The notes: a model not told the origin generated them from the letters alone. A DNA stretch of 64,000 nucleotides from Microgenomates group bacterium (GCA_049303675.1 JBAQNJ010000001.1:821443-885442), one strand, 5' to 3'. Shown: positions 9,370 through 39,685, numbered from the stretch's first letter. Made by a program: numbers and translations.

Positions 9370-9582
9370 ATGAACGAAAAATCACTCACTCCCATCGGTA
9401 TCATCTTATTATCTATCCTCTTCTTGCTGTTATCTTACGCCGGATATATTTCCTACCAGAGTATCGATTGGACAGTGCTCACCCGACTCGAGTCTCAGCC
9501 ACTAGTCCTACCAACTCCAGTTTCTTCACCCTCGGCAGTTGCTTTATCTCCCACTCCCTCCTTAACGCCAACGACAAAGTAG
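9370..9582 (+). CDS. small membrane protein with Pro/Thr/Ser-rich tail
   Basis: ORF with one TM helix; overlaps the convergent GIY-YIG gene at its 3' end. Confidence 0.3.
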   Translation: MNEKSLTPIGIILLSILFLLLSYAGYISYQSIDWTVLTRLESQPLVLPTPVSSPSAVALSPTPSLTPTTK

Positions 9583-9739
9583 CTACTTTTTCCACATAAA
9601 TCAATTCAAAAGATTTAAAGGCTCTCACATACTTGGACCCTTTGCCTGATTGATGTTTTAATATCCTCTTTTCCACGTCACTAGTTTGGCCGGTATATAG
9701 GGTATTTTTATCTGTTCTTAGAATATATACAAAATACAT
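9479..9739 (-). CDS. GIY-YIG nuclease family protein (UPF0213/YhbQ-like)
   Basis: 'FYVYILRTDKNTLYTGQTSDVEKRILKHQSGKGSKY' GIY-YIG motif. Confidence 0.75.
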   Translation of the reverse strand: MYFVYILRTDKNTLYTGQTSDVEKRILKHQSGKGSKYVRAFKSFELIYVEKVATLSLALRREWEIKQLPRVKKLELVGLVAETRVG

Positions 9740-11964: not shown

Positions 11965-12186
11965 TTATACATCCTTTCTCTCTCTACTTATCACCACCAA
12001 GTCACCTTCGCTAAGTTGGCCAGAGATGACACCTTTACCTCTCTCCATTTGAGCAAGGTCTGTTTTTTCAAATCTTTTTACAAGTGGTAACGGATCGCCG
12101 ACATTTGTATAACCTAGACTATATAAATAATCTCTCAAGGAAAATTTTCCGATACAATTATAGATAATTTTTGAATTTTCTATCAT
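11965..12186 (-). CDS. small hypothetical protein (~73 aa); paralog of 12341..12568
   Basis: ORF 11965..12279 truncated to the internal Met because its N-terminus is a translation of tRNA-Val; C-terminus '...GDLVVISRERKDV' is shared with the neighbouring paralog. Confidence 0.4.
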   Translation of the reverse strand: MIENSKIIYNCIGKFSLRDYLYSLGYTNVGDPLPLVKRFEKTDLAQMERGKGVISGQLSEGDLVVISRERKDV

Positions 12187-12261: not shown

Positions 12262-12340
12262 AAAGTGTGAAGTTGCCAACTGTGGGGTTTATCCCCAGTC
12301 CGAATGCTTTCGGACAGCTAAGCAGCCATGCTGCTGTATT

Positions 12341-12568
12341 TTACCAATCTTTATGTTCTCTGACTATTACCACCTGTCCTGCCTCAACGTGTTCAGGATA
12401 ATCAATTTTCTCTCTTCTCAAACCTGTAGCCCGCAATACATATGCCTCACCACTTTTAACATCCATAACTCCTACTCTCACAGAAAAATCCCCCAAACAC
12501 ACATCCAAAATTGCATCACACAAGCTTGATACCTTCATCTCTACGGCATTTGTTACACCCTTAATCAT
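12341..12568 (-). CDS. small hypothetical protein (75 aa); paralog of 11965..12186
   Basis: ORF; C-terminus '...AGQVVIVREHKDW' and ~60% nucleotide identity over the last ~40 nt with the neighbouring paralog. Confidence 0.4.
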   Translation of the reverse strand: MIKGVTNAVEMKVSSLCDAILDVCLGDFSVRVGVMDVKSGEAYVLRATGLRREKIDYPEHVEAGQVVIVREHKDW

Positions 12569-12571
12569 CTG

Positions 12572-12595
12572 AGCGAGAGACGGGACTCGAACCCG
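12572..12595 (-). pseudogene. tRNA-Gly 3' fragment (T-arm plus 3' acceptor), exact duplicate of the 3' end of tRNA-Gly(GCC) at 12866..12939
   Basis: rc 'CGGGTTCGAGTCCCGTCTCTCGCTC' identical to the 3' 25 nt of the intact gene; upstream sequence does not fold into D or anticodon arms. Confidence 0.55.
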
Positions 12596-12610
12596 TTGGC
12601 AGCCTGTCGC

Positions 12611-12862
12611 CTAAGGCGACTGCTCAACCAATTTAACTTTTAACCACTCACGACCCTTACCAGACTTTAAAGACTTTTCTCTTCTTAAGGCATCTATTCT
12701 CGTTGGCATATTTTCACCATAAATTAAATCAAATGGAAAAGTTAGTGAAGTATATTTGGATTTACCAGAATTATGTTCCGACATTCTTCTTTCAATATCG
12801 TTTGTCTGGCCTACATATAGTCGATTGTTTACCCGACTTTTAAGTACGTATACAGTAAACAT
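12611..12862 (-). CDS. GIY-YIG nuclease family protein (UPF0213/YhbQ-like)
   Basis: 'FTVYVLKSRVNNRLYVGQTNDIERRMSEHNSGKSKY' motif; paralog of 9479..9739. Confidence 0.75.
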   Translation of the reverse strand: MFTVYVLKSRVNNRLYVGQTNDIERRMSEHNSGKSKYTSLTFPFDLIYGENMPTRIDALRREKSLKSGKGREWLKVKLVEQSP

Positions 12863-12865
12863 TCT

Positions 12866-12939
12866 GAGCGAGAGACGGGACTCGAACCCGCAGCCTTCTC
12901 CTTGGCAAGGAGATGCTCAACCAATTGAGCTACTCTCGC
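12866..12939 (-). tRNA. tRNA-Gly (anticodon GCC)
   Basis: rc: GCGAGAGTAGCTCAATTGGTTGAGCATCTCC-TTGCCAA-GGAGA AGGCTGCGGGTTCGAGTCCCGTCTCTCGCT. Confidence 0.85.
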
Positions 12940-12943
12940 AATT

Positions 12944-12974
12944 CAGTTAACAGATTTCAGTTAACCGTTTACAG
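12944..12974. repeat. GTTAAC-core repeat, left flank of four-helix-bundle gene: CAGTTAACAG-ATTT-CAGTTAACCGTTTACAG
   Basis: read directly. Confidence 0.65.
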
Positions 12975-13344
12975 TTTTTAGCGACCTTATCAAACCGTAG
13001 AGTATTTTACCAGTTAAATCAGCCTGTGTTAATACCGGATTTACATCAAGTTTCGGATACAATTTATTAATAATTTTACATATTGCGACCACCTCAACCA
13101 GTGACTTTCTCGATATGCCCAAAAACTTAATGAAATCTCTTCTGCTGTCAGAAGCACTACCTTCAGCAATATTAATTGCCACCGATGTTGACGCTCTCCT
13201 GATCTGATCACCTAGACCATGCACTTCAAAACTAGGCAACAAAGTATGTAAAAGATATGAAAACTCTACTAACCTTACGGACTCTTCCCACACTTTTAAC
13301 TTTTCAAAATTCTGCATTTTCCTCTGTATACTGTTAACTGCCAT
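12961..13344 (-). CDS. four-helix-bundle protein (TIGR02436 / '23S rRNA intervening-sequence protein' family)
   Basis: 'LKVWEESVRL...LP..E.HGLGDQIRRASTSVAINIAEGS...FLGISRKSLVEV' family signature. Confidence 0.75.
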   Translation of the reverse strand: MAVNSIQRKMQNFEKLKVWEESVRLVEFSYLLHTLLPSFEVHGLGDQIRRASTSVAINIAEGSASDSRRDFIKFLGISRKSLVEVVAICKIINKLYPKLDVNPVLTQADLTGKILYGLIRSLKTVNG

Positions 13345-13359
13345 CCGTTAACTGTTTAG
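13331..13359. repeat. GTTAAC-core repeat, right flank of four-helix-bundle gene: CTGTTAACTG-CCATC-CGTTAACTGTTTAG (direct orientation relative to the left flank)
   Basis: read directly. Confidence 0.65.
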
Positions 13360-13432
13360 TGCCGAAAGTTGGACTCGAACCAACATCCCAGGTTTTTCAG
13401 ACCAGTGCCGTGACCATCTTGGCTATTTCGGC
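13360..13432 (-). tRNA. tRNA-Phe (anticodon GAA), copy 1
   Basis: rc: GCCGAAATAGCCAAGATGGTCACGGCACTGGT-CTGAAAA-ACCTG GGAT GTTGGTTCGAGTCCAACTTTCGGCA; anticodon stem has one U.U mismatch; 73/73 identical to the copy at 39464..39536. Confidence 0.65.
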
Positions 13433-13643: not shown

Positions 13644-14186
13644 CTATTTAATAACATCCTCAAACAGTTCTTTAGCGCTAAACACTAATGGCAATTTTAA
13701 AACCTCTTCACGAGTAAACCATTTTGCCTCAATTACTTTACTCTCAACATCATCTCTAGTTTCAGTTGTTTCAGATATAGTTTCAAAAAAGAAAATCACT
13801 CCATGATAATTATATTTTGGTGCAATTGCCTCTCTGAAGACTAAGAAACTTAGTTCCTTAGCCACAATTCCAGTTTCTTCCAATATCTCTCTTTTAGCCG
13901 CAATCTCCAGAGTTTCTCCAAATTCAACCTTACCTCCTGGTATTATCCAATAATCCTTGCCTCCTTCTAATGTTTCCCTAACTAACAAGAACTTGTTTTT
14001 ATTTCTTACCAACACGCCAACTATTACTTTTGGTTTCCTTTTTATCATTTCTAACTGAATCTTAGGCGGAATCGGCCGACAACTACACTCTCGGTTGTGA
14101 TCCGTATGCCACTGAATTCTCTCGTTCAAACTTGCCTTTTTAGGCATCTTGTTCTTCTGGTGCCACTCTTTATTTATCTTCGCCAT
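13644..14186 (-). CDS. NUDIX hydrolase with N-terminal Cys/His-containing extension
   Basis: Nudix box 'GGKVEFGETLEIAAKREILEETG'. Confidence 0.8.
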   Translation of the reverse strand: MAKINKEWHQKNKMPKKASLNERIQWHTDHNRECSCRPIPPKIQLEMIKRKPKVIVGVLVRNKNKFLLVRETLEGGKDYWIIPGGKVEFGETLEIAAKREILEETGIVAKELSFLVFREAIAPKYNYHGVIFFFETISETTETRDDVESKVIEAKWFTREEVLKLPLVFSAKELFEDVIK

Positions 14187-22097: not shown

Positions 22098-22234
22098 AAT
22101 CTACCACTTCAACGCCTGTTCGTAAAGGTTGTAAGTACTTTAATGACATATTCACTTATACACCAATCATCCGCCAAAGGCGGATTGTATTTTGTGGCAA
22201 AATTTTCCCTAGTCATATATTTAATCCCTCTAAA

Positions 22235-22275: not shown

Positions 22276-22692
22276 ATGAAACTTGTTGTCCCCGAAGCGG
22301 TCAATAGCAAAAGAATGTGTGTAGGATATCTTGAGCAATTGACACACATGTCCAGAAAAAACAGGAACAACCCCACAGCGGCAGAGGATAAAATTTGGCA
22401 AGAAGTTTTACGGAAAAGACAAACCGGCTACCTGTTTCTCAGACAAAAGCCAATTTATAGATTCATTACTGATTTCTATTGTGCTGAATTAAAACTCGCT
22501 ATAGAAATAGATGGCAGTTCACACAACAACAAAAAATGCACAGACAAACTTCGTGACCAATTTCTTAAACAAATAGGTATAGACACAATCAGATTTACAA
22601 ATAACGAGATAATCTACAATATAAATGATGTTAAAAATAAACTAATTGCAGTCTTACCCCCTCGTGTTAAAGAGGGGGGAGGGGGAGATTAA
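22276..22692 (+). CDS. DUF559 endonuclease-domain protein (Vsr/restriction-endonuclease-like fold)
   Basis: 'RQKPIYRFITDFYCAELKLAIEIDGSSHN...DKLRDQFLKQIGIDTIRFTNNEI' matches the DUF559 signature. Confidence 0.75.
   Translation: MKLVVPEAVNSKRMCVGYLEQLTHMSRKNRNNPTAAEDKIWQEVLRKRQTGYLFLRQKPIYRFITDFYCAELKLAIEIDGSSHNNKKCTDKLRDQFLKQIGIDTIRFTNNEIIYNINDVKNKLIAVLPPRVKEGGGGD
22657..22678. repeat. GC hairpin with GTGTTAAA loop (CCCCCTC-GTGTTAAA-GAGGGGG) inside the 3' end of the DUF559 gene
   Basis: read directly; encodes 'PPRVKEGGGG'. Confidence 0.6.
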
Positions 22693-25320: not shown

Positions 25321-25394
25321 GAGTCTATAGCTCAGTTGGCTAGAGCGTCTCATTGACATTGAGAAGGTCAGAGGTTCAAGTCCTCTTAGACTCA
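25321..25394 (+). tRNA. tRNA-Val (anticodon GAC)
   Basis: GAGTCTATAGCTCAGTTGGCTAGAGCGTCTCA-TTGACAT-TGAGA AGGTC AGAGGTTCAAGTCCTCTTAGACTCA. Confidence 0.85.
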
Positions 25395-27063
25395 CTAGAG
25401 AATACATCGGGTAGTTTATACACCTTTGTGAATATCGGATTTAGCGTATAGTTGGTAACTTTCTTATCTTTAATAGTAAAGTTCAAGAACACTTTTCTTA
25501 GTATAAAATCTAGCTGTCTCAGTGCCTTAGCTTTTTCCACTTCCTGTGGGATAATCTTTACTAGTTCAAGAAATTCATCAAAGGTCTTTGGAATCCGTTT
25601 TGATATCTCTAATTCATACCGAACTCTTTTTAATTCACCTTTGACTTCTGCCAGCCTATCTTCCATTTTAGTCAAATCACCTTCATAACTTTCAACCAAT
25701 CTCCTTTTATCACGCTGTTTCTCGTACCGCAAAATGTACTGCCTAATTGTCAATGCCTGTTTCTCTTTTTGACTTTCCTCAGCCGAAAGCGATCGTCTCA
25801 TACTATCCAATTCTTTAATTTTTTCCTCAGATGCCACCTTAAATTCCTTTTTGTATTCCTCATATCCCTCCTCGACTTTTATTGTAGCCCTCTTTAACAA
25901 ATCAGTAGCAAAATTCACCACTACTTTTGCCCGAACTGACTTATTGTGAAAAATGCAACCCTCTGTTTCGCAACGGAAATAAAATCGATTTACTTTTTGT
26001 TTTGTATGATGGGAAATCCCTGTCGACATTTCCTCTCCACAGTACCCACAAACAACTCTCTGCCTAAGCAAGTCCGCCTTTACAGTCCCGCCTCTTCTCG
26101 CCACAAATGCACCCCCGACCTTACCACCATTTACTTGTAAAAATTGGTCAGGTGTAACCATTGGTCGAAAATCATAAAAATCACCCAAGATACAAACCCT
26201 TGGGATGTTTTCTCCATAACTTAAGACTCCCTCATAAATTGGATTCTTTAACATCCTTGACACCATCTGTTTATCAAAGACACACAACTGATGTTTACCT
26301 CCACCAGTACCAACGGCCATTTTATATTTTTTACTATTCAAATATTCGGCAATTTCTTTCTCTCCTGTTTTGTCCAATCTCATAAACCATGCCTGTTTAA
26401 TATATGCCCAATATTTATCATCTGGCCTCAAAAATCCATTCGCATCCTTATAGTAACCATGTTTCGTTCGATTCAACTGTTTCCCTTTTTTAAGAGCATT
26501 ATTAATGCCTCTTATAACCGATTCTGAAAGATGGTCAGTATATTGTTTAGCCATTACAAACAACATCCCCAACAAAGTTTTGCCTGAAGGATTGTTCTCA
26601 AACTTAACTGTTTTGAATTGTAAATCTTTAATGATTCCCCGATCCAACAAATCAATAATTTCCCCCGCCTCCTTCAAGTTCCGACTTAGCCTGTCAGGGT
26701 GCCAAGATATAATACCGTCAATCTACCCGCCTTAATATCTTCAAGCATTTTCGAAAATAACGGTCTAATACCCGATTCTTTAGCCGACTCTGATTCCTGA
26801 ATTATTCTCTCGTCTTCCTTCCCTGAAATTAGCTTCAAATCCCTATCTTTTACTATTTCCAAACATTCCTCTACTTGAGCTGGTAGCGACTCCACCTGAT
26901 TATCTTTCTCGTCTGTCGACTTACGGGCATAAATCACATACCTAAAACTGTTTGGGTCAATTTTTTCTAACCTAGCGTTCATTATCTCACCAATTTCCTG
27001 AGCCAACTCCACCACTGTCATTGCTCCCTGTTTTTCCCCTATAGTATTATTTTCATTATTCAC
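25376..27063 (-). pseudogene. large serine recombinase (resolvase catalytic domain, recombinase domain, zinc ribbon, coiled coil) interrupted by a -1 frameshift at ~26722-26724
   Basis: N-terminal ORF 26686..27063 has 'YARKSTDE...'; C-terminal ORF 25376..26677 (TTG start) has the recombinase domain and Cys4 ribbon ('CGYCG...C..C'). My hand translation shows the conserved '...KAGR|IDGIISWHPDRLSRN' motif split between two frames; the 3' end overlaps tRNA-Val by 19 nt. Confidence 0.7.
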
Positions 27064-29739: not shown

Positions 29740-29815
29740 AGAGCGGTCCGAAAGCTTTCGGACAGGTCAGAGGGAAGTTTATCCACCTGTGACGGAAGCC
29801 CTGTCAGATTCACAA
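29740..29815 (+). ncRNA. candidate structured RNA / leader: perfect palindrome GGTCCGAAAGCTTTCGGACAGG followed by CAGG...CCTG and GACAGG...CCTGTC pairings
   Basis: read directly; lies 5' of a small ORF whose annotated ATG (29735) is inside the structure; no T-run after the first hairpin. Confidence 0.3.
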
Positions 29816-39463: not shown

Positions 39464-39536
39464 GCCGAAATAGCCAAGATGGTCACGGCACTGGTCTGAA
39501 AAACCTGGGATGTTGGTTCGAGTCCAACTTTCGGCA
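39464..39536 (+). tRNA. tRNA-Phe (anticodon GAA), copy 2 (73/73 identical to 13360..13432)
   Basis: GCCGAAATAGCCAAGATGGTCACGGCACTGGTCTGAAAAACCTGGGATGTTGGTTCGAGTCCAACTTTCGGCA. Confidence 0.65.
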
Positions 39537-39685
39537 CTAGATGTCTGTTCTTTGCGGTACACTCCTTTTTCTTATTTCTATCATCGTTGTCTCTATTTTT
39601 TTTTGATATTCTACCAGTTTATAACTCCCGTCTTTAATCCACGGTAGAAGATTATCTTTTTTTGTTTCATTTTTTGTAGTCATAC

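Follow-up and report, generated by a model that had tools for sequence, protein, structure and literature searches.

How does a gene for a small nuclease come to lie between an intact tRNA gene and a partial copy of that same tRNA gene? The question is raised by a locus within a stretch of 64,000 nucleotides (nt) from a Microgenomates group bacterium (GCA_049303675.1 JBAQNJ010000001.1:821443-885442; hereafter the window, with positions counted from its first letter), in which a GIY-YIG nuclease gene separates tRNA-Gly(GCC) from a duplicate of its 3' end. An earlier note on this DNA had taken the arrangement for the classic footprint of site-specific insertion into a tRNA gene. Its observation is confirmed here and extended, and its interpretation is partly supported. 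The reading we prefer, with a probability of about 0.55, is that the locus represents one copy of a widespread, hairpin-guided, and tRNA-targeting cassette, made of a single-domain GIY-YIG gene of ~80-90 amino acids (aa) and a short, perfect, GC-rich palindrome, both located in a tRNA gene that has been duplicated locally. Of the two copies, one is intact, here the upstream tRNA-Gly(GCC), and the other is truncated by the open reading frame (ORF) and has one arm exchanged for the palindrome.

A nuclease gene between tRNA-Gly and its remodeled copy

All features of the locus lie on the minus strand. The intact tRNA-Gly(GCC) (T, 12866/7-12939) was identified by ARAGORN and scores 70.9 bits against the Rfam tRNA model over 12867-12939; its cloverleaf fold has a z-score of -5.1, and it encodes no CCA. 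The GIY-YIG ORF (12611-12862, 83 aa) matches Pfam PF01541 with an E-value of 3.5e-16, and its ATG stands 4 nt past the discriminator base of the tRNA. After the ORF comes the duplicate of the tRNA 3' end, at 12572-12595. The positions given earlier for the tRNA, the ORF, and this 24-nt fragment are correct, and the fragment is indeed identical to the T-arm and 3' acceptor of the tRNA. The exact identity actually covers 28 nt (12863-12890 upstream and 12568-12595 downstream), extending through the discriminator and past the tRNA end into four further nucleotides, CAGA; 100 shuffles gave 0 such matches. From repeat to repeat, the unit measures 295 bp. The final base of the downstream copy is the A of the start codon of a second ORF, orf75 (12341-12568, 75 aa, an ORF call), for which no match was found in Pfam, NCBIfam, PHROG, or PADLOC. 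This ORF starts 3 nt past the 3' end of the tRNA copy, a junction with the geometry also seen where the GIY-YIG ORF follows the real tRNA.

The duplication does not stop at the T-arm. By alignment, the truncated copy (T*, 12572-12633) corresponds to tRNA-Gly from about position 14 to its end. It opens with 13 nt of the D-loop and 3' D-stem (AATTGGTTGAGCA, 12621-12633), which lie inside the last codons of the GIY-YIG ORF. These are followed by a perfect 15-nt palindrome, GTCGCC-TTA-GGCGAC (12606-12620), in the place of the 17-nt anticodon arm; by 7 nt of the variable region (AGGCTGC, 12599-12605), identical to and collinear with tRNA-Gly; by a 4-nt insertion (CAAC/CCAA, 12595-12598); and by the T-arm, 3' acceptor, and discriminator. 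The two identical segments of tRNA-Gly and T* show zero substitutions, and the stretch between them has been replaced rather than mutated. The palindrome holds the stop codon TAG of the ORF (12611-12613), and the final seven codons of the nuclease gene (KLVEQSP*) come from the copied D-loop of the tRNA together with the palindrome's 5' arm. That the duplicated fragment cannot form a D or an anticodon arm, as had been remarked, is literally true, but pieces of the D-loop and variable region were overlooked; likewise, the hairpin described as imperfect and overlapping the ORF stop is real, but its core is perfect. By analogy with the SsnA system discussed below, GTCGCC-TTA-GGCGAC is presumed to be the recognition hairpin of the nuclease.

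Neither ARAGORN nor Rfam calls T* a tRNA, and even at a permissive threshold Rfam had no family for either the broken copy or the hairpin. The fold of the T* region is better than that of shuffled sequences (z -2.05). In the predicted fold, the 4-nt insertion pairs with TTGG from the copied D-loop and lengthens the stem; the insertion may represent a scar of the junction. No 5' acceptor partner for the tRNA copy was found within the window, and no U-tract terminator follows on the 3' side of the hairpin. Between tRNA-Gly and the ATG there is no room for a promoter or a Shine-Dalgarno sequence. The only candidate promoter for both tRNA and ORF is a promoter-like site ~65 nt upstream of tRNA-Gly (TTAACA-17-TAAAAT with TG, 13004-13032), a consensus match only.

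Recurrence of the arrangement at different tRNA genes

Scanning a genome collection with an alignment of the protein family, we obtained 50 loci from many phyla, 41 of them with small ORFs. A first protein alignment was too diverse for locus finding; the narrower one that was used biases the set toward proteins with G[KQ]GREWLK. The 41 loci span at least eight phyla, including the candidate phyla radiation (CPR), Chloroflexota, Bacteroidota, Verrucomicrobiota, Kiritimatiellia, Fibrobacterota, Acidobacteriota, and others. A tRNA gene precedes the ORF on the same strand by 130 nt or less in 24 of the 41 loci, and by 15 nt or less in 14 of these; the ORF runs into a complete tRNA in nine, and one or the other arrangement is found in 30. 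For comparison, the chance expectation of a tRNA within 130 nt is ~0.2% (roughly estimated rather than computed). Where the upstream tRNA is present, the piece that follows the ORF is 97.6%-100% identical to the local tRNA over 23-52 nt. The link that had been drawn between the ORF and the duplicated tRNA 3' end is thereby borne out, the arrangement being repeated in dozens of unrelated genomes with differing tRNAs.

The closest homologs of the window protein (64%-68% identity) share its architecture, around tRNA-Val or tRNA-Gly (loci L003, L006, L008, L010, L012, L186, and L187). The order in L008, L010, and L012 is intact tRNA, a gap of 0-3 nt, ORF, D-loop copy, GTCGCC-TNA-GGCGAC, variable region, T-arm, and acceptor. 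L003, L006, and L187 carry an extra 5' piece upstream, which runs from the acceptor and D-arm through the palindrome and variable region into the first half of the T-stem, and their outer pseudo-tRNA differs from the inner tRNA-Val(CAC). L186, the nearest relative, shares the 15-mer exactly but has the order flipped, with a broken 5' copy containing the palindrome, then the ORF, then an intact tRNA-Gly(TCC); the succession of broken copy, ORF, and intact tRNA is also seen in L011 and L041. Arrays of broken copy-ORF units with an intact tRNA at the end make up L017 and L041. Around tRNA-Asn on a Fibrobacteria chromosome (L020, OY970309.1, 2169-3200) there are two 100%-identical tandem arrays. 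In one, a unit of 84 nt (a 5' pseudo-tRNA containing the palindrome, and a spacer) is present in 3.2 copies; in the other, a unit of 340 nt (ORF plus pseudo-tRNA) is present in 2.2. This complete identity points to very recent amplification.

We also observed that, in the orthologous loci L003, L006, and L009 on one side and L187 on the other, the pseudo-tRNA halves, ~400 nt apart, keep a perfect 7-bp acceptor pairing. Three of the pairs differ between the two sides (GGACCCA/TGGGTCC versus GGATCTG/CAGATCC), and the changes are compensatory.

In a neighbor-joining tree, nuclease proteins that share a partner tRNA fall together (Asn, Arg, Val/Gly, Ile, Met, Leu(TAA), Lys). Members of the Asn clade come from Chloroflexota, Fibrobacterota, Acidobacteriota, and Methylomirabilota; the window protein nests within a CPR Val/Gly clade.

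A single class of palindromes flanks 34 of 38 non-redundant loci, at a density of 2.69 per kb as compared with 0.18 per kb further away, a 15-fold difference (P ~1e-52). Most have the form TCCGCC-NNN-GGCGGA, and variants retain the GCC...GGC core and perfect pairing; the GTCGCC type is also present in L003, L006, L008, L010, L011, and L187. The hairpin lies on the stop codon in most loci. The part of the non-functional tRNA copy that is replaced varies. For Val, Gly, Asn, Ile, and Lys it is the anticodon arm or the 5' half of that arm; for Arg, the D-loop; and in L077 and L031, the T-arm. Palindromes are confined to the dispensable tRNA copy, as one would expect were insertion into the sole working copy lethal. 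The possibility that the hairpin is a remnant of the anticodon arm of Leu(TAA) or Ser(TGA) was rejected: the three loop bases vary without constraint, and conservation of the stem extends to unrelated tRNAs.

Within the window we found one GTCGCC palindrome, one ATCCGCC-AAA-GGCGGAT, and two of the GTCCGAAA type in tRNA pieces. The ATCCGCC palindrome (22169-22185, plus strand) is solo and intergenic and of a class found beside GIY-YIG genes in other phyla; it lies upstream of a 138-aa ORF (22276-22692), which, judging by eye, we take to resemble a DUF559/Vsr-like endonuclease. Together with two palindrome-bearing tRNA pieces described below (12298-12327 and 29740-29775), it supports a genome-wide habit.

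Comparison with tRNA-Gly(GCC) genes free of the ORF, which the earlier note had suggested, gave a consistent result. A metagenome scan with the 22-nt T-arm/acceptor sequence was unspecific (48 of the 80 loci were tRNA-Asp) and included 19 tRNA-Gly loci. L077 is the only one among the 19 with a GIY-YIG ORF and also the only one with a downstream partial copy, while six near-identical tRNA-Gly(GCC) genes (L087, L102, L113, L124, L127, and L139) are empty of both. This contrast between filled and empty sites belongs to a lineage other than that of the window's genome. Scans of viral contigs for the palindrome in tRNA context returned 0 matches, and there is therefore no sign of a phage vector.

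The nuclease family and comparable systems

PF01541 spans residues 2-69 of the 83 in the window protein, a length that falls within the ~80-150 aa of Ssn proteins (CDD cd10448), and there is no second domain. All family-invariant residues are kept (Y5, Y16, G18, T20, R26, H30, E62, K66). The ratio of nonsynonymous to synonymous substitution (dN/dS) is 0.06-0.14 in pairwise comparisons of homologs within clades, a pattern of purifying selection. Because the catalytic residues are invariant and dN/dS is this low, the nuclease is probably functional. A HMMER scan of 1.84 billion representatives returned 5,950 proteins at E <= 1e-10, so that the cargo is not unique to this insert but belongs to a family of thousands. 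Many members are annotated with spurious N-terminal extensions of 20-50 residues that read through the upstream tRNA (total lengths of 100-126 aa, with the match beginning at residue 20-50), a caution for annotators.

By family profile, the best solved relatives are the UPF0213 proteins 1ZG2 (BH0048, E 1.6e-16) and 1YWL (EF2693, E 1.7e-14), followed by SLX1, a result that establishes homology alone and not subfamily. The same profile gives 64 bits to the Ssn-type protein of Azospirillum and 51 to gonococcal SsnA, compared with 58 for the UPF0213 member YazA, 56.5 for BH0048, and 52 for EF2693. The window protein is 35% identical to gonococcal SsnA and 41% to the Azospirillum relative of SsnA. 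Models of homing endonucleases (TIGR01453, PHROG, PADLOC) produced only weak N-terminal matches of ~35 residues, and the C-terminal DNA-binding domain of homing endonucleases is absent, the window protein ending at residue 83. No fitting defense-system or phage family was found in PADLOC and PHROGs, just weak N-terminal matches to the GIY motif.

The window contains a second GIY-YIG paralog (9479-9739, minus strand). It has 86 aa, of which 67 align with the first at 48% identity, and is nearer to UPF0213 than to Ssn. The gene starts with an ATG inside the stop region of a 507-aa membrane-protein gene, and no tRNA is nearby. Its 3' end holds a palindrome, GACTCGAGTC, and GAGTTGGTAGGAC, which resembles a D-loop; this may be what is left of a tRNA piece.

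Among described systems, the closest in design is that of SsnA from Neisseria meningitidis, a 94-aa single-domain GIY-YIG protein that binds a hairpin repeat (NTS/SRM) in single-stranded DNA (ssDNA) and cuts a few nucleotides upstream of the hairpin; its gene is flanked by the repeat (Chenal et al. 2025; PMC11893778). That paper notes an insertion sequence (IS)-like gene architecture and never mentions tRNA (PMC11893778). The cassette shares with Ssn a single GIY-YIG domain of <100 aa, a GC-rich hairpin repeat that starts at the stop codon or shortly past it and, in many loci, is found on either side of the gene, and the 35%-41% identity given above. Its palindromes are shorter, however (15 nt, TCCGCC-NNN-GGCGGA or GTCGCC-TNA-GGCGAC), have no oriented flanks, and appear low-copy in the 64 kb covered of a ~1-Mb genome, whereas Ssn repeats number hundreds per genome; and the cassette sits in duplicated tRNA genes. 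It thus resembles Ssn in design but fails the SRM feature by which Ssn is defined. The ssnA locus of Neisseria gonorrhoeae holds 11 dRS3/NTS repeats in 3.2 kb, one of them beginning 2 nt past the stop codon, and no tRNA. This locus came from a gonococcal chromosome mislabeled within the plasmid collection, where record L183 (NZ_CP119142.1), listed as a plasmid, is 2.17 Mb of N. gonorrhoeae and evidently a chromosome. Its ssnA homolog seems frameshifted or altered at the N-terminus, with an upstream ATG in another frame.

The UPF0213/YazA/YhbQ proteins (cd10456) have the same size and catalytic motifs as the window protein and include its best matches among solved structures, but they are encoded by ordinary chromosomal genes, yazA lying between trmNF and rsmI. 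Their function is poorly defined, and we know of no association of UPF0213 with tRNA duplications or palindromes. In fungal mitochondria, mobile endonuclease ORFs (e.g., at Allomyces atp6) are inserted at the end of an essential gene, whose terminal part they supply or duplicate, so that the gene still functions, with the displaced fragment left downstream; the target there is organellar and protein-coding, and no palindrome is involved. REP/BIME-RAYT and IS200/IS605 elements also combine a small nuclease gene with flanking palindromes recognized as ssDNA hairpins, and solo palindromes occur as well. Their HUH tyrosine transposases both cut and join, whereas GIY-YIG enzymes only hydrolyze, and REPs are intergenic rather than inside tRNA copies. 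Phage T4 SegB is a free-standing GIY-YIG homing endonuclease encoded in a tRNA gene cluster; its site contains the T-psi-C stem-loop motif conserved in tRNA genes, and it drives the inheritance of itself and of the neighboring tRNA genes (PMC2330249). The likeness consists in a GIY-YIG nuclease gene among tRNA genes. SegB has two domains, one of them its own DNA-binding region, and cuts the double-stranded DNA of the gene-less allele, with no palindrome or broken tRNA copy, while the 83-aa window protein is a catalytic domain only.

Proposed mechanism, alternatives, and significance

The anatomy and the comparative data suggest that the cassette would enter through recombination between a chromosomal tRNA gene and a homology arm of tRNA origin within the cassette. 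One crossover inside the variable/T-arm/acceptor segment would yield the order tRNA, ORF, and D-loop-palindrome-T-arm-acceptor, the 28-nt repeat representing the crossover region; a crossover on the other side would yield the flipped form, and unequal exchange the arrays. The ORF would be transcribed from the tRNA promoter, and 3' processing of the tRNA would free an almost leaderless mRNA (CAGA-AUG, with a 4-nt leader). If, as for SsnA and the NTS repeat, the nuclease recognizes the palindrome as an ssDNA hairpin, nicks at the hairpin could stimulate local recombination, resulting in tandem amplification, in switches as to which copy is the intact one, and in transfer to the same tRNA species in other genomes. 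Only tentatively, and with doubts, would we extend this to an unrecognized class of tRNA-gene-specific mobile cassettes, each clade tuned to one tRNA species, which nick ssDNA hairpins, rely on host recombination that leaves one working tRNA and one hairpin-swapped decoy, and produce a leaderless mRNA via tRNA transcription and processing.

Several observations weigh against this reading. A hydrolytic nuclease cannot itself join DNA, and host recombination has to be invoked; recognition of the hairpin by this protein family is argued by analogy, and the window protein appears from its sequence to be equidistant from Ssn and UPF0213. The published SRM pattern (HGTCWY..YYVSBRH..WNVSBRG..RNCYNB) occurs in 0 of the 41 loci and is absent from the window locus, while a 3.2-kb gonococcal control contains eight. 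The palindrome is low-copy within the window, with one of the GTCGCC type and one or two related. A search for an empty site in a close relative of the window's genome, made via the neighboring NUDIX gene (13644-14186), found none: it yielded 86 homologs with up to 72% identity, and the four contigs examined had neither synteny nor a tRNA cluster. Between L003 and L187, the module is 82.7% identical in nucleotides and the flanks 74%-76%, and the proteins are 81.5% identical for GIY, 77.7% for S26, and 86.1% for ParB; strong purifying selection and vertical retention at this locus suit a resident gene, possibly a useful one, no less than an actively mobile one.

Partial tRNAs without the nuclease gene tell in the same direction. 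L093 has an upstream tRNA fragment with the palindrome and no ORF. In the window, at 12298-12327 (minus strand), the 12-nt 5' end of tRNA-Val(TAC) (GGCTGCTTAGCT) is followed by GTCCGAA-AGCA-TTCGGAC and by a second hairpin, TGGGG-ATAAA-CCCCA. This piece, 55 nt upstream of the intact tRNA-Val and with a fold z-score of -4.9 against shuffles, resembles a 5' tRNA copy that is broken and carries a palindrome, without a nuclease gene. At 29740-29775 (plus strand), 4.3 kb downstream of tRNA-Val(GAC) (25321-25395), GCTAGAGCG, GTCCGAAA-GC-TTTCGGAC, and AGGTCAGAGG stand next to one another, with no ORF of the nuclease family nearby; the pieces correspond to the D-stem, the variable region, and the beginning of the T-stem in that tRNA, whose anticodon arm is here replaced by the palindrome. 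An old insertion or rearrangement may have its far border here. The earlier note had held that related genomes with the 3' fragment, differently spaced, but without the nuclease gene would speak against a link between the two. Pieces that answer to this exist, but they are few, a minority set against a very strong statistical association.

The idea of an integrase-type element that inserted in tRNA-Gly, supplied a new 3' end while displacing the original one, and later shrank to a single nuclease gene has in its favor the exact 28-nt direct repeat of the tRNA 3' end bordering the cargo, and att-like tRNA 3' fragments occur in the metagenome matches L085, L136, and L137. Integrase-borne tRNA islands are also bounded by such a repeat and keep a functional tRNA. 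We nevertheless consider it very improbable. There is no recombinase here or in any of the 41 loci, and the only cargo between the repeats is the 252-bp GIY-YIG ORF; the copy is longer and remodeled, reaching back to the D-loop, with a conserved palindrome in place of the anticodon arm and with the ORF translationally fused to it; and the unit of ORF plus palindrome is found at different tRNAs, in either order (L186, L011, and L041) and in perfect tandem arrays (L017 and L020). What stands of the original interpretation is therefore a footprint of insertion or recombination at a tRNA gene, by a very small unit, and not one of the classic integrase kind. A transposase-style staggered cut with a target duplication of ~65 nt is unlikely as well, given that only one copy has the palindrome and that the order of intact and broken copies can flip. 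Scarcely credible is the combination of unrelated events, namely, a chance tandem duplication of tRNA-Gly that decayed and an independent ORF: tandem tRNA duplicates do exist (e.g., L064), but the full architecture recurs in dozens of loci with the palindrome association quantified above, and the identical segments are free of substitutions around a middle that was replaced rather than mutated.

A serious alternative, unlikely as we judge it, is that of a domesticated host gene, resident in the genome and acting on tRNA loci or on ssDNA generally, in which case the broken copy and the palindrome would be ancient by-products or sites of regulation, with no movement at present. The dN/dS values would fit such a gene, as would the match of the module to its flanks in synteny and divergence in L003, L006, and L187, the location of yazA, a related UPF0213 gene, amid genes for tRNA/rRNA modification in Bacillus subtilis, and the description of SsnA as a host factor modulating transformation (PMC11893778). 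Less easily explained in this way are the same partner tRNA species across phyla in the Asn clade, tandem arrays with 100% identity, an ORF whose presence varies among near-identical tRNA-Gly genes, and two arrangements inside one protein clade. We regard as improbable, though able to coexist with the cassette, an element that acts at the RNA level, in which both hairpin and tRNA-like 3' piece serve the transcript, by fixing or protecting its 3' end or by offering a tRNA-like handle to RNase P/Z, the CCA-adding enzyme, or the ribosome; the palindrome would then be a stem-loop in RNA and not a site in DNA. The frequent position of the hairpin on the stop codon and the fold of the T* region are compatible with this, and the three compensatory pair changes that preserve acceptor pairing in L003 and L187 hint at the possibility that split pseudo-tRNA halves still pair and work as RNA. 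Yet the stem is conserved across phyla in its sequence and not in pairing alone, with an invariant GCC...GGC core; palindromes also occur upstream of ORFs and in ORF-less tRNA fragments; and the window copy has neither a 5' acceptor partner nor a U-tract terminator after it.

Other genes around the locus also adjoin tRNAs. Between tRNA-Phe and tRNA-Gly lies an ORF for a 23S rRNA-intervening-sequence protein of the four-helix-bundle type (PF05635, TIGR02436; 12961-13344, minus strand), which starts 14 nt past tRNA-Phe and whose family is known from insertions in structured-RNA genes. The ORF orf75 and a 73-aa ORF (11965-12186, minus strand) are weak paralogs (31% identity, E 0.001), and each starts 1-3 nt past a tRNA 3' end or a copy of one. 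Several short genes in this genome appear to use tRNA 3' ends as start context. The tRNA-Phe(GAA) gene itself is present in two identical copies of opposite orientation, 26 kb apart (13359-13432, minus strand; 39464-39537, plus strand), with the identity ending at the tRNA borders.

Searching the literature for GIY-YIG genes associated with tRNA duplications, fragments, palindromes, or arrays, we found only the fungal mitochondrial cases, SegB, and the Ssn paper; as the searchable literature is partial, this absence is weak evidence. As far as it goes, a cassette embedded in duplicated and hairpin-swapped tRNA genes is apparently undescribed. Ssn-type nucleases were described only in 2025, and the cassette gives them, or a sister family, a recurrent genomic partner, the tRNA gene, with a choice of tRNA that is clade-specific. 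If the hairpin-nicking model is true, it would explain, across thousands of genomes, the common unannotated tRNA pseudogenes and the genes next to tRNAs that are annotated as "GIY-YIG nuclease family protein"; it would supply short hairpin-specific ssDNA nucleases paired with their natural substrates; and it would add a recombinase-free route for the insertion of DNA at tRNA genes.

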